Virus record (IMG/VR): IMGVR_UViG_2603880148_000010
Source of the DNA: a virus
Lineage: Duplodnaviria > Heunggongvirae > Uroviricota > Caudoviricetes
Reading direction: 5' to 3' (one strand)
DNA length: 6,628 nt
Shown: piece after piece, positions 1 through 6,628 of the stretch
Numbering within the stretch: the first letter of the stretch is position 1
Layout of the letters: each line of letters starts with the position of its first letter
Translations under genes and position numbers: made by a program
Notes under the pieces: model-generated
What the model saw: only the letters and a program-made list of their open reading frames with translations
What the model was told of the DNA's origin: nothing
Database searches by the model: none

Positions 1-155
1 CACCGACGTAGCCCCACTGTTCGTCCATTTCCGCGCAGACGATGACGTCACTGCCCGGCTGTATGCGCGAGGTTACCGACTGCGGCCTGAGTTTTTTAAA
101 TGGCGGAAAATCGTGTTGAGGCCAACGCCCATAATGCGGGCGGTTGCCCGGCATC
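1..155 (-). CDS. insB: IS1 transposase InsB reading frame (5' part only; 3' end beyond window start); normally expressed as the InsAB' fusion by -1 frameshifting
   Basis: Minus-strand frame translates from ATG at 153-155 as [16 protein letters not shown]... and continues without a stop to position 1. It overlaps the insA 3' end in the -1 frame at the A6C slippery motif. Confidence 0.85.
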
Positions 156-348
156 CAACGCCATTCATGGCCATATCAATGATTTTCTGGTGCGTACCGG
201 GTTGAGAAGCGGTGTAAGTGAACTGCAGTTGCCATGTTTTACGGCAGTGAGAGCAGAGATAGCGCTGATGTCCGGCAGTGCTTTTGCCGTTACGCACCAC
301 CCCGTCAGTAGCTGAACAGGAGGGACAGCTGATAGAAACAGAAGCCAC
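73..348 (-). CDS. insA: IS1 InsA (transposition repressor / N-terminal part of the InsAB' transposase), 91 aa
   Basis: ORF translation [43 protein letters not shown]...[11 protein letters not shown] is the canonical InsA, with a CxxC...CxxC zinc finger and helix-turn-helix; TAA stop at 73-75. Confidence 0.93.
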
Positions 349-380
349 TGGAGCACCTCAAAAACACCATCATACACTAA

Positions 381-403
381 ATCAGTAAGTTGGCAGCATC
401 ACC
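381..403. repeat. IS1 terminal inverted repeat (insA-proximal end, IRL); element/chromosome junction at 403|404
   Basis: Minus-strand sequence GGTGATGCTGCCAACTTACTGAT ends exactly where the ynfA reading frame resumes. Confidence 0.85.
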
Positions 404-687
404 AAATTATTGGATGCTTTCTGCCCTGGTTGTGGTTAAAACGAAACGCCAGTATCTGGCTGTTGCTTCCGGCGGGGATTTCACTGGCGCTGTTTGTCTG
501 GTTGTTAACGTTGCATCCAGCGGCGAGTGGGCGTGTTTACGCGGCTTATGGTGGCGTTTATGTCTGCACGGCGTTGATGTGGCTGCGCGTTGTGGATGGC
601 GTGAAACTGACTCTTTATGACTGGACGGGTGCGTTGATTGCGCTTTGCGGCATGTTGATCATTGTTGCGGGCTGGGGGCGCACGTAG
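404..687 (+). pseudogene. ynfA: ynfA (UPF0060 family small inner-membrane protein) 3' fragment, disrupted by IS1 within codon 15
   Basis: In-frame translation from 406 reads [93 protein letters not shown], which I recognise as YnfA residues ~16-108. The first ~15 codons and the native start are absent and are replaced by the IS1 end. The ORF track's 'M' at 430 is a TTG that corresponds to an internal Leu. Confidence 0.85.
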
Positions 688-689
688 GA

Positions 690-892
690 ACATAAATCCA
701 TTTTATCAATAAGATAAGAGGAAGTGTCAGCTGACAAAAGGTATTCTATTTCATCTTTTGTCAACCATTCACAGCGCAAATATACGCCTTTTTTTGTGAT
801 CACTCCGGCTTTTTTCGATCTTTATACTTGTATGGTAGTAGCTCAGTTGCGTAGATTTCATGCATCACGACAAGCGATGCAAGGAATCGAAC
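690..892 (+). promoter_or_regulatory. rspA upstream regulatory region (putative promoter; exact elements not resolved)
   Basis: A 200-bp AT-rich non-coding gap precedes rspA. It contains a TATACT -10-like hexamer (823-828), an 8-bp palindrome GTGATCAC (796-803) with a Dam GATC and a TGTGA CRP-like half-site (795-799), and a Shine-Dalgarno AAGGA (881-885) 7 nt before the ATG. The operon is known to be regulated, but the site assignments are my inference. Confidence 0.3.
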
Positions 893-2107
893 ATGAAGAT
901 CGTAAAGGCTGAAGTTTTTGTTACCTGTCCGGGGCGTAATTTCGTCACATTAAAAATCACCACTGAGGACGGTATTACGGGCCTTGGGGATGCCACCCTC
1001 AATGGACGTGAGCTTTCCGTGGCCTCTTATTTGCAGGATCACCTTTGTCCGCAGCTTATTGGTCGCGATGCGCACCGTATCGAAGATATCTGGCAGTTTT
1101 TCTATAAAGGTGCTTACTGGCGTCGCGGTCCGGTTACGATGTCGGCCATTTCAGCGGTTGATATGGCGCTGTGGGATATTAAAGCCAAAGCTGCCAACAT
1201 GCCGCTTTACCAGTTACTCGGCGGCGCGTCTCGTGAAGGGGTGATGGTTTATTGCCATACCACCGGTCACAGTATTGATGAAGCTCTGGATGATTATGCC
1301 CGTCATCAGGAGCTGGGATTCAAAGCCATCCGCGTGCAGTGCGGAATCCCTGGTATGAAAACCACCTACGGCATGTCGAAAGGTAAAGGTCTGGCTTATG
1401 AACCCGCAACCAAAGGACAGTGGCCGGAAGAGCAGCTGTGGTCGACGGAGAAATACCTCGATTTCATGCCGAAATTGTTTGACGCGGTACGTAACAAGTT
1501 TGGTTTTAATGAACATTTGCTGCATGACATGCACCATCGCTTAACGCCTATTGAAGCGGCGCGCTTTGGTAAAAGCATTGAAGATTATCGCATGTTCTGG
1601 ATGGAAGACCCGACGCCTGCAGAAAACCAGGAATGCTTCCGTCTCATTCGCCAACATACCGTCACACCCATCGCAGTGGGTGAAGTCTTCAACAGCATCT
1701 GGGACTGCAAACAACTGATTGAAGAGCAACTCATCGATTATATCCGCACCACGCTGACCCATGCAGGCGGAATTACCGGTATGCGCCGGATTGCCGATTT
1801 TGCTTCGTTGTATCAGGTACGTACTGGCTCACACGGTCCTTCCGATTTGTCACCAGTCTGCATGGCTGCGGCGCTGCACTTTGATCTGTGGGTCCCCAAT
1901 TTCGGTGTCCAGGAGTACATGGGTTATTCCGAACAAATGCTCGAAGTCTTCCCGCACAACTGGACTTTCGATAACGGCTATATGCATCCGGGAGACAAAC
2001 CGGGTCTTGGCATCGAATTCGATGAAAAGCTGGCGGCGAAATATCCCTATGAACCTGCTTATCTGCCAGTCGCACGTCTGGAAGATGGCACGCTGTGGAA
2101 CTGGTAA
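893..2107 (+). CDS. rspA: RspA, starvation-sensing protein; enolase-superfamily D-mannonate dehydratase-like enzyme (404 aa)
   Basis: Translation from ATG 893 ([43 protein letters not shown]...[11 protein letters not shown]) matches RspA as I know it. SD AAGGA sits at proper spacing. The upstream in-frame ATG at 860 in the ORF track lacks an RBS and would add 11 non-native residues. Confidence 0.93.
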
Positions 2108-2118
2108 GGAGTAAGGTA

Positions 2119-3138
2119 ATGAAAAGCATTTTAATTGAAAAACCGAATCAACTGTCGATTATCGAACGTGAAATACCCACCCCGTCAGCGGGTGAAGTAC
2201 GAGTAAAAGTGAAACTTGCCGGAATTTGTGGTTCAGATAGCCATATTTACCGTGGGCATAATCCTTTTGCGAAATATCCGCGCGTCATTGGTCATGAATT
2301 CTTTGGCGTCATTGATGCGGTGGGTGAAGGTGTGGAAAGCGCCAGAGTCGGTGAACGCGTTGCTGTCGATCCAGTGGTCAGCTGTGGGCATTGCTATCCG
2401 TGCTCTATAGGTAAGCCGAACGTTTGTACGACACTTGCTGTATTAGGTGTGCACGCTGACGGTGGTTTCAGTGAATATGCCGTGGTTCCGGCAAAAAATG
2501 CGTGGAAAATTCCTGAAGCAGTGGCCGATCAATATGCGGTGATGATCGAACCTTTTACCATTGCGGCTAACGTTACCGGTCATGGTCAACCGACTGAAAA
2601 TGATACCGTTCTGGTTTATGGTGCCGGTCCAATCGGCCTGACGATCGTTCAGGTATTAAAAGGCGTCTATAACGTTAAAAATGTGATTGTTGCCGATCGC
2701 ATTGATGAACGACTGGAAAAAGCGAAAGAGAGCGGGGCTGACTGGGCGATTAATAACAGCCAGACACCGCTTGGCGAGATTTTCACTGAAAAAGGCATCA
2801 AGCCGACATTAATTATCGATGCGGCTTGTCATCCTTCTATCCTGAAAGAGGCCGTAACGCTGGCTTCTCCAGCGGCACGTATTGTATTGATGGGCTTCTC
2901 CAGTGAACCGTCTGAAGTGATTCAGCAAGGAATTACCGGAAAAGAACTCTCTATTTTCTCTTCACGCTTAAATGCAAATAAATTCCCGGTCGTTATCGAC
3001 TGGTTAAGTAAAGGGTTAATTAAACCAGAAAAATTAATTACCCATACGTTTGATTTCCAGCATGTTGCTGATGCCATTAGTTTATTTGAACAGGATCAAA
3101 AACATTGCTGCAAAGTCTTACTCACTTTTTCTGAATAA
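2119..3138 (+). CDS. rspB: RspB, zinc-dependent medium-chain alcohol/sugar-acid dehydrogenase family protein (339 aa)
   Basis: Translation from ATG 2119 (MKSILIEKPNQLSIIEREIPTPSAGEVRVKVKLAGICGSDSHIYRGHNPF...) with a strong SD AAGGAGTAAGG just upstream. It carries MDR hallmarks: catalytic-zinc motif CGSDSH, GHE motif (VIGHEFFGV), structural-zinc Cys cluster CGHCYPCSIGKPNVC, and a Rossmann GxGxxG (VYGAGPIGL). It starts 12 nt after the rspA stop, so the two form an operon. Confidence 0.93.
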   Translation: MKSILIEKPNQLSIIEREIPTPSAGEVRVKVKLAGICGSDSHIYRGHNPFAKYPRVIGHEFFGVIDAVGEGVESARVGERVAVDPVVSCGHCYPCSIGKPNVCTTLAVLGVHADGGFSEYAVVPAKNAWKIPEAVADQYAVMIEPFTIAANVTGHGQPTENDTVLVYGAGPIGLTIVQVLKGVYNVKNVIVADRIDERLEKAKESGADWAINNSQTPLGEIFTEKGIKPTLIIDAACHPSILKEAVTLASPAARIVLMGFSSEPSEVIQQGITGKELSIFSSRLNANKFPVVIDWLSKGLIKPEKLITHTFDFQHVADAISLFEQDQKHCCKVLLTFSE

Positions 3139-3151
3139 TACCAATAACGGC

Positions 3152-3182
3152 GAGTAAGTAGTACGCATCTTACCTCTTTTTT
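3152..3182 (+). terminator. Weak candidate intrinsic terminator downstream of rspB
   Basis: A short stem GTAAG (3154-3158) / CTTAC (3169-3173) with a 10-nt loop is followed by CTCTTTTTT (3174-3182). The stem is only 5 bp and AT-rich, so this is tentative. Confidence 0.2.
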
Positions 3183-3195
3183 AGAGATAACCATT

Positions 3196-3306
3196 ATGAC
3201 AATAGAAAAACACGAAAGAAGCACTAAGGATTTGGTGAAAGCAGCAGTATCGGGATGGCTGGGCACTGCGCTTGAATTTATGGATTTCAAGAGTCATGCG
3301 TGTTAA
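3196..3306 (+). pseudogene. ydfJ: Orphan 36-codon ORF resembling the N-terminus of a metabolite:H+ symporter (MHS)-type MFS transporter; probable 5' remnant of a gene split by prophage integration
   Basis: ATG 3196 translates as MTIEKHERSTKDLVKAAVSGWLGTALEFMDFKSHAC*. The AxxG-x-L-x-E-(W/F)-x-DF segment is the conserved N-terminal motif of ProP/KgtP/ShiA-type transporters, and the frame stops 5 codons later, right at the AT-rich prophage edge. Naming it ydfJ rests on my recollection that the reference K-12 genome has ydfJ split by the Qin prophage next to rspB; this is unverified here. Confidence 0.55.
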
Positions 3307-3325
3307 CTATTTGATAAATATTAAA

Positions 3326-4606
3326 TTAATTTTTCATTGCTTCGTTATGGGGCATGGTTGGGGCAAACTCGCTTAACTGTGTATTTAACAAAGCTACCTG
3401 TGCATTATTGTTTTCAGACATCCATTTTCCGTATACCTGAAATACCATTTGCGCATCTGCATGGCCCATCTGGTTTGCTATAAATGCCGGGTTAGCACCA
3501 GCTGTCAGCGACCAGCAGGCATAAGTATGTCTCGACTGATATGATTTTCGATGGCGGAGTCCGGCACGTTTTATCGCTGCGTCCCACATCTGCCTTATTG
3601 AGTCAACGGTAAAATGGTCACCATAATTTTTTACTCTCGCTGACACTTCAGGTTGAAAAACAAAGGTGCATTTTTGTTTTTCTGTTCTGCCATACTCTCT
3701 GAGGTGAACATCAATGATATGCTCTTTGCTCAGTCTCGTTAATGTCATCTGACTCCGGAGAGCGTCGATTGCTGGCTTAATAAGATGAATGACCCGATTG
3801 GTTCCCGCCTGTGTTTTTGGTACCGTGAAACGGTCTTTTGCTAAATTTCTCCTGATCATCATTGTTCCATTTTTCAGATCTATGTCCTCCCATCCAAGTG
3901 CACACAGCTCACCAGGGCGAACGCCAGTATAAACAGAAACACACCATAAATTTTTTGCTTGCTGATTTCTGCACGCATCGATAAGACGGATAAATTCCTC
4001 CCGCGAAAGAGGATCCGGAATGGTTCTTGATTCCTTTAATGGCGAGATCCCCTTAAACGGGTTATCTGCCAGGTAACCGTTATCAACACCAAACTGGAAC
4101 ACGGCGTTAAGATTTGTCATGTAATTATTTACAGTTACAGCCGATCTCCCTGGTTGTGTAACAATATAGTTACTTTTGGGGATCTGGTATCCAGTCAGTA
4201 GCTCTTTACGAACCTCCAGTAATTTTTCTTTATTAATCGATGAGGCAAGATTTTTTTCACCGATTATGCTCAGGATATTTTTGATGACGGCACGGTATGT
4301 GTTGAGTGATGTTTTTGCGACTTCAGTTTCTTTCAGTGCCAGAAATTTTTCAGCCAGTTCTTTTATGGTTAAATCTTGTCGGGCCTCACCAAATTTTTCC
4401 AGATTGCGTGAGGAGGGAAACTGTTTTGCATAGTCGAAAACACCAGTTTTTATTGCGTAACAAACAGAGGCGCGTAGCTCACCTGCAACGCGCCTGTTTT
4501 TTGCTGTGTCAGGAACCCCCAGGTTTTCCCTGACTCTTACGCCTTTATAAACAAACCAGATACGTAATTTCCCTCCATGGTTTTCCACGCCTGTCGGATA
4601 TTTCAT
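3326..4606 (-). CDS. Phage integrase, tyrosine site-specific recombinase (about 426 aa)
   Basis: Long minus-strand ORF with tyrosine-recombinase box I (TGVRPGELCALGWEDID) and box II (SRHTYACWSLTAGANPAFIANQMGHADAQMVFQVYGKW), giving an R...H-x-x-R...Y catalytic set. I prefer the ATG at 4606 (MKYPTGVENHGGKLRIWF..., preceded by purine-rich GAGAGAAG) over the ORF-track start at 4621, which has no SD. It sits at the prophage edge next to the host junction. Confidence 0.92.
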   Translation of the reverse strand: MKYPTGVENHGGKLRIWFVYKGVRVRENLGVPDTAKNRRVAGELRASVCYAIKTGVFDYAKQFPSSRNLEKFGEARQDLTIKELAEKFLALKETEVAKTSLNTYRAVIKNILSIIGEKNLASSINKEKLLEVRKELLTGYQIPKSNYIVTQPGRSAVTVNNYMTNLNAVFQFGVDNGYLADNPFKGISPLKESRTIPDPLSREEFIRLIDACRNQQAKNLWCVSVYTGVRPGELCALGWEDIDLKNGTMMIRRNLAKDRFTVPKTQAGTNRVIHLIKPAIDALRSQMTLTRLSKEHIIDVHLREYGRTEKQKCTFVFQPEVSARVKNYGDHFTVDSIRQMWDAAIKRAGLRHRKSYQSRHTYACWSLTAGANPAFIANQMGHADAQMVFQVYGKWMSENNNAQVALLNTQLSEFAPTMPHNEAMKN

Positions 4607-4640
4607 TTCAACTTCTCTCATTAGTTAGTGTGGCTTTTAG

Positions 4641-4892
4641 TCAAGTAAGATGACGTCTTGGTCTTGCTGATGCCTGGCGCTCAATCCAGCGATCAATTTC
4701 TTCCAGGTTGTAAAAGCATGGACTGTTATCCCATGGCATACCGTCATGAGCGACATGCTTATATTCCCTTCCTTCCATAAACGATTTTTCCCGGGCCTTT
4801 TTTAACGTACCTTTTTTTATTCCTTTCAGCGCAATTAACTGCTCTTCGGATACCCATTTGCCGGGAGAGACAATCATGATTACTTCGCTCAT
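4641..4892 (-). CDS. Excisionase-like / small DNA-binding protein (83 aa), the xis position of the int-xis module
   Basis: Small basic ORF (MSEVIMIVSPGKWVSEEQLIALKGIKKGTLKKAREKSFMEGREYKHVAHDGMPWDNSPCFYNLEEIDRWIERQASARPRRHLT) immediately upstream of int and co-directional with it. Size, position and charge fit prophage excisionase-like proteins. The start is ambiguous: ATG 4892 or the in-frame ATG at 4877 (MIVSPGKW...). Confidence 0.7.
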   Translation of the reverse strand: MSEVIMIVSPGKWVSEEQLIALKGIKKGTLKKAREKSFMEGREYKHVAHDGMPWDNSPCFYNLEEIDRWIERQASARPRRHLT

Positions 4893-4920
4893 CGATTTCT
4901 TTATCTCTTACATCAGACGA

Positions 4921-4955
4921 GCGCCGGTTGCAGAATACCAGTCACAACCGGCGAC
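4921..4955. other. Inverted repeat in the intergenic gap between the exonuclease gene and xis
   Basis: CGCCGGTTG (4922-4930) and CAACCGGCG (4946-4954) form a perfect 9-bp stem around a 15-nt loop. On the transcribed minus strand no U-tract follows, so it is not a classical intrinsic terminator. Confidence 0.5.
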
Positions 4956-4964
4956 AGTTGAACA

Positions 4965-6628
4965 TTAAGAATCAGCCTGACTCGGGATCAGTTTTTGCCA
5001 GATAGCTGAAACGTATTTTGCCTGGTAACGGGCGTCATCAAGTGCATTATGGCGCTCACCTTCGAATGGAATAGCCGTTCTGGCATCGAAGTCTATGGCT
5101 TTCCCCAGCTCAACGATTGTGCGTACATCGCGATCGTTGTAGTAACGCCACGGGCAGGGGATTCCCTGCCGTTCGTATGAACGGCGCAAAATCGTGTTGT
5201 CGAAGTTGGCTCCATTTCCCCAGACATGAACAAAAAATTCACCGGAGTTTTCGTCGATAAATTCCCGCAATTGTAACAGTGCATCATCTAACGGGATTTC
5301 ATCGGTCATAATGGCAGATTGCGCTTCGCGTGATTGCTTAAGCCACCATTTAATGGTGTCCCGATCAATGACTCCGCCAGCAGTTTCCAGATCGATAGTC
5401 TTACTAAATTCCGGTCCCATATCTCCGGTTTGCGGATCGAAAAATATTGCACCTATTGAGATGATCGGGGCATCAGGATTTTTTCCCATGGTTTCAAGGT
5501 CGATCATTAGATGGTCACACGTCCTGCTGGTGGATGTGATTTCGTGATGACCGTTCACCTTAATTGAGTGATCTGCCGTCTCGCCAGTTTCATTATCGCT
5601 ATTGTGATGCTGATTGCCGCCAGTGTTCTCCTTGTGCTGATGCGCAGTGCCTTCCATTTCCTCCGGATCATTTTCCTGAACTTCAGGCTGATTCTCTCCA
5701 TCGAATATTTCCTGGTATGTTGCGTCACCCATCACCGCACCACAATCAGGGCAGTTGCCGCCACCGCTATGACCGCAGGCGGTGCAGATCTTTTCCGGTT
5801 CCTGTTGCACTACTGGTTCAGGTTGTTTCGTTTCTGGCTCGTTTTGTTGCGTATTTGGGCTGTTTTGTTCCGCTTTCTGGTCGTTCTGTTCCGTTTCTTG
5901 CTGGTTCTGGTTCACAGAATCGCGGGTCTGGATCCCCTTAACCCATTTCGGATCATTCGGGTCGCTAATCCCTTCAACAAATTCACCACGTGATACTGCA
6001 AGCAGTTCATCGGCGTCAGGCTGGCTGATATTGGCTGCCTGCATAATTTTGTTTACTTCGTCAGCGGTAACTTTTACTGACCCTGGTTGTGCGGTCGTGT
6101 CAGATGCACCAGTATTTTGTTGTGAACCTGAGTATGTACCGTTTTTGCGGGCGAAATATTCTTCTTTCGTGATTTCAGTAGCCCCAGCAGACAGCGCCTT
6201 ATCCAGACCAGAAAGTTTGTTTGCGCGACCGTATTTTTCGCCATCCTTGTCGGTGAAGAGGAAGTAGAACGGCCCCTCACGTTCTACAGATGGTTCGACT
6301 TCCACTTTGCATTCGGTTTTTTCGTTGTCTGGAATTGCCGTTTCCACTGCATCAGTTTCTGGTACTGGCGACGAGAGAGTATCAGTTGCGCTCTGATTTG
6401 TTCCTTCATCTTCAAACACGCCCTTTGTAGTCAGGTATTCAGTAATGTATTTGTTCAGTGCCACAGGGTCTTTGTGAATGTCGATCGGACGTTCACGGAC
6501 AAGGCCAAAAATAGTCTGGCGGTCGTAGCGAAGGGCATCAGGCTGTTTGCGCATTGATGCCGAGATACGCTTCCAGTCTTCGCGGTCGTTGTCGATAACT
6601 TCATTTTTTGCCCAGCGATGGATGCTGC
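4965..6628 (-). CDS. Large prophage protein (5'-partial; >553 aa visible) with a C-terminal DnaQ-like DEDDh 3'-5' exonuclease domain, a CxxC-x7-CxxC zinc-ribbon-like motif, a His-rich tract and a Q/E/N-rich repeat linker
   Basis: The minus-strand ORF stops at TAA 4965-4967. The frame stays open upstream of the ORF-track ATG (6554) to the window edge (...SIHRWAKNEVIDNDREDWKRISAS-MRKQPD...) and no SD precedes 6554, so the true start is outside the window. The C-terminal ~180 aa carry the three DEDDh motifs: Exo I MIDLETMG, Exo II VWGNGANFDNT, Exo III HNALDDARY. Confidence 0.8.
   Translation of the reverse strand, partial: SIHRWAKNEVIDNDREDWKRISASMRKQPDALRYDRQTIFGLVRERPIDIHKDPVALNKYITEYLTTKGVFEDEGTNQSATDTLSSPVPETDAVETAIPDNEKTECKVEVEPSVEREGPFYFLFTDKDGEKYGRANKLSGLDKALSAGATEITKEEYFARKNGTYSGSQQNTGASDTTAQPGSVKVTADEVNKIMQAANISQPDADELLAVSRGEFVEGISDPNDPKWVKGIQTRDSVNQNQQETEQNDQKAEQNSPNTQQNEPETKQPEPVVQQEPEKICTACGHSGGGNCPDCGAVMGDATYQEIFDGENQPEVQENDPEEMEGTAHQHKENTGGNQHHNSDNETGETADHSIKVNGHHEITSTSRTCDHLMIDLETMGKNPDAPIISIGAIFFDPQTGDMGPEFSKTIDLETAGGVIDRDTIKWWLKQSREAQSAIMTDEIPLDDALLQLREFIDENSGEFFVHVWGNGANFDNTILRRSYERQGIPCPWRYYNDRDVRTIVELGKAIDFDARTAIPFEGERHNALDDARYQAKYVSAIWQKLIPSQADS
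5822..5913. repeat. About 4.5 imperfect 21-bp tandem repeats inside the exonuclease CDS (in-frame heptapeptide repeats)
   Basis: Plus-strand units GTTGTTTCGTTTCTGGCTC / GTTTTGTTGCGTATTTGGGCT / GTTTTGTTCCGCTTTCTGGTC / GTTCTGTTCCGTTTCTTGCTG / GTTCTGGTTC... encode (minus strand) ...QQETEQN-DQKAEQN-SPNTQQN-EPETKQP... Confidence 0.7.

Follow-up and report, generated by a model that had tools for sequence, protein, structure and literature searches.

Which state of the prophage end beside rspB is the normal one in Escherichia coli? In K-12 the prophage Qin occupies this position with a damaged integrase gene, and a relative of Qin at the same chromosomal site with an undamaged integrase would raise the further questions of whether that prophage could still leave the chromosome and how much of it is left to do so. 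We addressed these questions with a 6,628-nucleotide stretch of DNA from IMG/VR virus record IMGVR_UViG_2603880148_000010 (the window, meaning this whole stretch, with position 1 as its first letter). Our reading, to which we give a probability of roughly 0.85, is that the window covers the right-hand junction between the chromosome and a Qin-family (mEp460-like) lambdoid prophage inserted in ydfJ codons 27-31 beside rspB, and that it holds attL, a full-length lambda-type int gene, a xis gene of the DUF1233 family and the start of the early-left operon. Integration and excision would follow the lambda paradigm, with a module that is competent for excision as judged from its sequence and a prophage that is probably a defective remnant. 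The features of the window are as follows.

1 to 403, minus strand: partial IS1, with insA at 73-348 (Pfam InsA domains) and a terminal inverted repeat reaching to 403
404 to 687, plus strand: 3' remnant of ynfA, codons 15-108 (PF02694, E=2e-35; mapped on K-12 ynfA)
893 to 2107, plus strand: rspA, 404 aa, chromosomal flank (open reading frame list; the protein equals K-12 RspA)
2119 to 3138, plus strand: rspB, 339 aa, chromosomal flank (open reading frame list; 3 substitutions relative to K-12 RspB)
3197 to 3307, plus strand: 5' fragment of ydfJ, named ynfP in K-12 (K-12 annotation, alignment, PMC6379469)
3278 to 3288, no strand assigned: att core TTATGGATTTC, 11 bp, in attL (comparison of attL, attR and attP)
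3289 to 3325, no strand assigned: P' arm, 37 nt from the core to the int stop codon, with a candidate arm-type site inside
3326 to 4606, minus strand: int, heterobivalent tyrosine integrase, 426 aa (open reading frame list, Pfam, PHROGs, phmmer)
4641 to 4892, minus strand: xis, DUF1233-family excisionase, 83 aa (open reading frame list, PF06806, PHROGs)
4893 to 4964, minus strand: spacer of 72 nt between the exonuclease gene and xis (RNA fold)
4965 to 6628, minus strand: 3' two-thirds of a ydfE-type exonuclease gene (PF16473, E=2.6e-67; alignment with the full-length gene)

The two ends of the window lie on opposite sides of the junction. At the chromosomal end, the IS1 part (positions 1-403) matches the IS1 copies of E. 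coli strain 600029 at 100% identity, and its insertion point, mapped on K-12 ynfA, falls after nucleotide 43, in codon 15. This IS1 in ynfA belongs to the flanking context and lies outside the prophage. An exact search of one genome per species did not find the IS1/ynfA junction, complete E. coli genomes do not have it as one uninterrupted stretch, and the truncated YnfA reading frame matched only a read-assembly contig of 2,994 nt whose sequence stops within int. At the phage end, the exonuclease gene runs open, free of stop codons, to the last position of the window; its match to the PHROGs exonuclease profile covers profile positions 271-822 of 823, and the protein has 823 aa in relatives. 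Between the two, the reading frame of the ydfJ fragment crosses the att core and then stops in phage DNA.

The att core places the junction to the nucleotide. The same 11-mer is common to attL (in the window and in K-12), to attR (in K-12 and in strain 600029) and to attP (in the phages mEp460_ev081 and PhiR42_1), and the flanking sequences change exactly there. The attL of the window joins bacterial to phage DNA on the side nearest int, and it is the same as that of K-12 over the 101 nt compared (the 11-nt core with 45 nt to its left and right). The other three sites are the following.

attR, the ydfJ 3' junction: ...CACCTGTGAATTATGGATTTCCAGTTATATTCG...
attB, the empty site: GCGCTTGAATTTATGGATTTCCAGTTATATTC
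attP, the circular junction: CACCTGTGAATTATGGATTTCAAGAGTCATGCG

A core in ydfJ codons 27-31, beside rspB, agrees with two published descriptions, one in which Qin is inserted at the 5' end of ydfJ and truncates 28 N-terminal codons of YdfJ (PMC6379469), and one in which an att sequence of 18-19 bp was defined for the ydfJ prophages (PMC8112680). Within the P' arm, a candidate arm-type site, TAACTATTTGATAAA, occupies positions 3303-3317. The motif (C/T)AACTAT(C/T)TGA is found there, in the P arm in direct orientation and in one inverted copy further out, and these three copies in all may be the arm-type sites at which the integrase binds.

The two genes that would act on this site are both whole. 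The int reading frame has an alternative upstream ATG at 4621 (3326-4621, minus strand, 431 aa), while the RefSeq start in relatives is the one at 4606, which gives the 426-aa protein beginning MKYPTG. The arm-binding domain matches the full PF12167 profile (Arm-DNA-bind_2, E=5.7e-24) at residues 9-72 of the 431-aa frame, and the catalytic domain matches PF00589 (Phage_integrase, E=4.1e-18) with a score of 66 bits, where the cut-off is 27.1. The protein also matches the integrase family PHROG_1 with E=1e-76 and, by phmmer, the Tn1549 Int in the PDB with E=4e-9. Xis matches PF06806 (DUF1233, putative excisionase) over profile positions 1-69 of 70 with E=1.6e-31, the excisionase family PHROG_539 with E=1.4e-35 and, weakly (E=0.004), the PDB entry 2KVV, described as a putative excisionase. 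The first-pass annotation of this DNA had placed the xis stop 15-35 bp upstream of the int start; the stop codon lies at 4641-4643, and the measured gap of 34 nt (start at 4606) or 19 nt (start at 4621) bears this out.

Set against this module, K-12 Qin is the damaged copy. The same annotation had described the Qin integrase by rspB as disrupted in K-12, and this is right: MG1655 intQ (b1579) is annotated as a pseudogene and abuts an IS2E remnant. This remnant replaces int codons 1-41, which make up most of the arm-binding domain, together with the whole of xis and the 3' portion of ydfE, and xis is absent from Qin in the MG1655 annotation. K-12 DNA is near-identical to the window from rspB to about position 4486 and unrelated past that point. 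Alignment of Int with the K-12 remnant, a comparison that the annotation had proposed, gives a match from residue 42 on: residues 42-426 of IntQ differ from the window by two substitutions, A46S and L302F, and residues 1-41 are IS2-derived. K-12 Qin and the window have in common the 11-bp core in ydfJ by rspB, the integrase gene itself, a ydfE-type exonuclease gene and the dicB operon, and they differ in that IS2E has damaged int, xis and ydfE in K-12, whereas int and xis are intact in the window and its exonuclease gene reaches 4965. Both att cores are retained in K-12 Qin. Excision of Qin was not detected in K-12 in an earlier study, which ascribed this to the inactive integrase (Wang et al. 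2010, PMC3105296).

The frequency of the two states in E. coli is lopsided. A 1.9-kb query spanning the junction was covered to at least 80% in 2,356 of 5,426 complete E. coli genomes, and a query consisting of int and xis found a match in 3,057 complete E. coli genomes, with coverage of at least 80% in 2,350. In a spread sample of the matches, the truncation of the K-12 type (query positions 1-1160) was confined to laboratory or derived strains; derivatives of E. coli B had a match 1 nt shorter, with int annotated as an arm-domain protein alone; and O157:H7 genomes had either module matches of 94% identity or just 950 nt, comprising xis and the 5' part of int. The exact 426-aa Int is indexed in 12,610 blocks of an assembly collection, and among the matches listed from these blocks it lies between xis and rspB in 10 of 10 places. 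The intact module is the majority state in E. coli, and K-12 is the exception. According to a review, multiple mutations in intQ are present in most Qin hits (PMC6379469), a statement that disagrees with our counts; comparison against the truncated K-12 gene may explain the difference. The feature is already known and belongs to a very common element, whose intact form is known from living phages. As a separate observation, many E. coli genomes retain exactly these Int and Xis proteins undamaged, and the prophage is decayed in both carriers that were read through.

Sequenced temperate phages carry nearly the same DNA. The int-xis region is 99.4-99.7% identical to that of mEp460_ev081 (LR597641), PhiR42_1 (PV340562, host ECOR13), HannyBb (PP925841) and Tritos (OV696610), and these four phage records are 45-49 kb long, the window being the integrated, attL form. 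In mEp460_ev081 and PhiR42_1, the two that were translated, Xis is 100% identical and Int is identical at 424 of 426 residues, with the differences at non-catalytic positions. These two phages have the same core and P' arm as the window, with the exonuclease gene downstream, and in both the P arm is joined to the core and the P' arm as one contiguous attP. We take their records to represent the excised form because attP is joined in them. The mEp460_ev081 record, the one phage record whose whole annotation was read, contains complete head, tail, lysis and early regions. That phages with a joined attP encode an identical Xis points, indirectly, to a role of this protein as the directionality factor.

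By the lambda paradigm, the catalytic and core-binding domains of Int would act on the core while its N-terminal domain would hold the arm sites. Integration would proceed by recombination of attP with attB in ydfJ by Int, presumably with host bending proteins, and excision would proceed by recombination of attL with attR by Int and Xis, which would rebuild an uninterrupted ydfJ. The expression route that we infer puts xis and int last in the dicB (pL-like) operon, which DicA represses and which would have to be derepressed for excision. In the gene order of the family, ydfA through dicB is followed by ydfD, the exonuclease gene and then xis-int, all downstream of dicBp and, in relatives, with xis-int several kilobases away from it. 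DicA represses dicBp (bioRxiv 10.1101/2023.04.14.536235), and because xis and int lie downstream of this repressed promoter, their expression probably needs derepression of the dicB operon.

This arrangement gives some weight to the possibility that int and xis are intact in sequence yet silent in the source strain, the prophage being grounded by permanent repression or by lost early-left read-through. A scan of positions 3100-5100 for terminators and for promoters of the sigma-70 consensus returned 3 terminator-like sites and 2 that were promoter-like, counts that did not exceed those from shuffled sequence; no pI-like promoter can be claimed, and no convincing promoter lies near xis or int. 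The repressor adds to this. In sampled relatives, the immunity repressor DicA has 135 aa and its recorded matches are to HTH families only. Because these matches alone are on record, we infer a DicA that lacks a peptidase domain, such as SOS cleavage would act on, so that SOS induction may not trigger excision. Lambdoid prophage repressors of this kind, without a peptidase domain, have been described in O157 Sakai (PMC2669165). The experimental record at related prophages speaks the other way. The same work on O157 Sakai found that defective lambdoid prophages with intact int and xis excise and circularize, spontaneous circular forms being found for several of them (PMC2669165), and for a ydfJ prophage of the O26:H11 strain 11368, PCR yielded the attP junction, which was sequenced from the amplicon (PMC8112680). 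We consider a permanently silent module possible but doubtful.

A second alternative concerns the rest of the prophage, namely that a complete temperate phage of the mEp460_ev081 or PhiR42_1 type resides at ydfJ in the source strain, is inducible, and can excise, replicate, package and re-lysogenize. In its favor are the near-identity of int-xis to phages of 45-49 kb, one of them with a full structural module, and an exonuclease gene that is intact to the end of the window. The nearest carriers of the same DNA argue against it. The closest complete genome is that of strain 600029, from human stool in Bangladesh, which is 100.0% identical over window positions 404-6628 (6,225 nt). Its attL and attR cores are intact and lie 35.1 kb apart, and the prophage between them contains two IS1 copies, one IS66-family element and truncated Q, J and YdfR genes; terminase, portal and head genes are absent from its annotation. 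STLEFF_47, a near-identical carrier, has IS2 in the holin gene and IS3 downstream. The source itself has been subject to IS1 activity, as the IS1 in ynfA attests, and prophages at the ydfJ site have been published as ranging from 11 to 97 kb and as mostly mosaic (PMC6379469). A complete phage is, in our judgment, unlikely.

The same evidence bears on the proposal in the first-pass annotation that this copy is a less degraded and possibly excision-competent relative of Qin. Excision is plausible, given that int, xis and the attL core are intact and near-identical to those of phages with an attP. "Less degraded" has no support from the 6.6-kb window, which ends in the exonuclease gene, and is probably wrong for the lineage, in which the closest complete genome has an IS-ridden remnant. 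The annotation had regarded a heavily deleted or IS-disrupted prophage as speaking against its proposal, and such a remnant is what the completeness check in strain 600029 found; a degraded prophage is still compatible with excision, because excision needs only int, xis, attL, attR and their expression. From the sequences compared, the prophage in the window is likely a cryptic remnant that keeps a working integration/excision end, from which excision would be plausible and phage production unlikely.

Our preferred reading, an excision-competent end on a probably defective prophage, has close counterparts among known systems. Rac is one for which excision has been documented experimentally in K-12 (PMC3105296). 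Its IntR is 43% identical to Int over 414 aa and shares the arm-binding N-terminus, the Y-x-x-R-H box II and the C-terminal motifs; its XisR is distantly homologous to Xis, at 26% identity (E=2e-5); and its gene order, att, int, xis, is that of the window. Rac differs in its attachment site, which is ttcA, and in that the Xis proteins are much more divergent. Lambda offers the same plan at a greater distance: a heterobivalent recombinase and a small Xis, with int adjoining the P' arm and a leftward early operon that ends in xis-int. The lambda xis and int genes overlap by 23 nt whereas those of the window do not overlap, and the distance from the core to the int stop codon is 37 nt in the window compared with about 75 nt in lambda. 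Lambda Xis is not among the matches to Xis, which belongs to a different family, DUF1233. By published description, the PPydfJ prophages of STEC and EPEC are lambda-like and inserted in ydfJ, as here.

For the biology of E. coli, the comparison means that a prophage end found very commonly in the species is present in the K-12 reference in an untypical form, damaged by IS2, and that the int-xis-attL module, in its intact form, is what sequenced temperate phages use. One should not presume from K-12 that the ydfJ prophages of wild isolates are grounded; such a prophage may leave the chromosome, restore ydfJ, or undergo recombination with phages that enter the cell and share its attachment site. 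Beyond such bookkeeping the significance is small. A more ambitious interpretation, in which the host retains int-xis under host-level selection as a reversible switch ("active lysogeny"), strikes us as very improbable. If it were true, ydfJ would return to full length on excision, regaining its own promoter and its 28 N-terminal codons, and would be switched off when the prophage re-integrated.

The catalytic residues of Int call for one qualification. Placed by phmmer alignment to Tn1549 Int and numbered on the 426-aa protein, they are R230 (TGVRPGE), K264 (PKTQAG), R359, H382 (MGH) and Y392 (VYGKW). The first-pass annotation had called the integrase full length with all catalytic residues in place; the open reading frame, both arginines and the Tyr of VYGKW are as it described them, but box II reads Y356-Q-S-R359-H360 rather than H-x-x-R, with a Tyr at the position of the first His in the Tn1549 Int alignment. 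Among the catalytic positions, conservation is lowest at the first His of H-x-x-R, and Y356 leaves the nucleophile and both Arg residues unaffected. Rac IntR has Y-H-T-R-H at the matching position, and the phage copies of Int keep Y356, since they depart from the sequence of the window solely at residues 22, 46, 301 and 311. Because Rac IntR and the phage copies also carry it, this Tyr is best regarded as a trait of the family and not a defect. That the substitution impairs catalysis, so that Int would be intact as a reading frame alone, has next to nothing to recommend it apart from the location of Y356 at a His position of the catalytic pocket in the Tn1549 Int alignment, for this Tyr also occurs in Rac IntR, with Rac excision measured in K-12 (PMC3105296), and in phage copies with a joined attP, and Int homologues of 58-61% overall identity occur in Stx-converting phages.

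Another register for box II came from a MAFFT alignment with lambda Int, which is about 23% identical to Int and aligns unreliably near this box. It set lambda H308 opposite H360, one register off the phmmer placement on Tn1549 Int, and was dropped because the two proteins share just 23% identity and because the motif R-H-T-[FY]-A can be aligned with both Tn1549 Int and IntR without ambiguity.

Two smaller sequence elements complete the description of the module. A 21-nt att-like sequence inside int (3396-3416) was considered as a secondary att site and set aside; with agreement at 18 of 21 positions and no more than two copies, it probably matches by chance. The 72-nt spacer upstream of xis folds at -27.1 kcal/mol (z = -2.98) into a 9-bp stem rich in G+C and a further helix in which the region of the xis start codon is paired, and this predicted fold could affect the translation of xis.

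In box II of the integrase encoded by int, a tyrosine replaces the first histidine of the usual H-x-x-R. Because IntR of the Rac prophage carries Y-H-T-R-H at the position equivalent to Y-Q-S-R-H, this tyrosine looks, from the sequences compared, like a subfamily trait.

Features discussed here (window coordinates unless another record is named)
1-403, IS1; 404-687, remainder of ynfA; insertion point after ynfA nucleotide 43 (codon 15)
3303-3317, copy of the motif (C/T)AACTAT(C/T)TGA; other copies at 19889-19903 and 19662-19670 of record L002
3396-3416, 21-nt att-like sequence ACCTGTGCATTATTGTTTTCA within the 3' end of int
3529-3543, minus strand, integrase box II (int codons 356-360, Y-Q-S-R-H)
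4893-4964, minus strand, spacer separating xis from the exonuclease gene, folded as RNA
4965-6628, ydfE-type exonuclease gene; K-12 counterpart at 22079-22999 of the MG1655 stretch L001
14374-49449 of L017 (NZ_CM128582.1 284500-334400), 35.1-kb ydfJ prophage of strain 600029

Elsewhere in the species, the int-xis module has decayed by routes that differ from the IS2 truncation in K-12. The matches among the complete E. coli genomes (e.g., NZ_CP053600.1, NZ_CP117044.1; NZ_CP017436.1) include E. coli B derivatives in which the int-xis alignment is shorter by 1 nt and int bears no annotation beyond "Arm DNA-binding domain-containing protein," a combination suggestive of a frameshift. They also include several O157:H7 genomes that match just 950 nt of the module, comprising xis and the 5' part of int. 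The closest complete genome, that of strain 600029, has a ydfJ prophage that keeps both att cores but in which no head or packaging genes are annotated. Two copies of IS1 and one IS66-family element lie in this prophage, along with a cargo annotated as Mom/Com-family, AAA family ATPase, YbgA-family, and lipocalin-family proteins.

The motif (C/T)AACTAT(C/T)TGA has a single copy in the P' arm and two in the P arm, of which the outer one is inverted; all three are candidate arm-type Int binding sites. The att-like sequence within int is identical at 18 of 21 positions to ACCTGTGAATTATGGATTTCA, which spans the P-arm/core junction of attP. This resemblance may be due to chance or, alternatively, mark a relic or secondary att-like site.

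Upstream of xis, the spacer is predicted to form a G+C-rich stem of 9 bp and then a helix in which the region of the xis start codon is paired (−27.1 kcal/mol; z = −2.98). Such a fold may influence how xis is translated or how the transcript is processed. The adjoining exonuclease is 823 aa long in intact relatives, whereas the K-12 ydfE pseudogene represents its N-terminal part alone. The Pfam domains listed for the exonuclease are YdfE_N, YdfE_C, and Rv2179c-like 3'-5' exoribonuclease, and the window sequence also contains a cysteine-rich CTACGH...CPDCG stretch and an acidic, glutamine-rich linker.

As a single piece, the IS1/ynfA junction was found in none of the 5,426 complete E. coli genomes, nor in species-representative genomes. 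The truncated ynfA open reading frame is shared with only one 2,994-nt read-assembly contig (SRR32315696), and the junction could be used as a lineage marker of the source strain.
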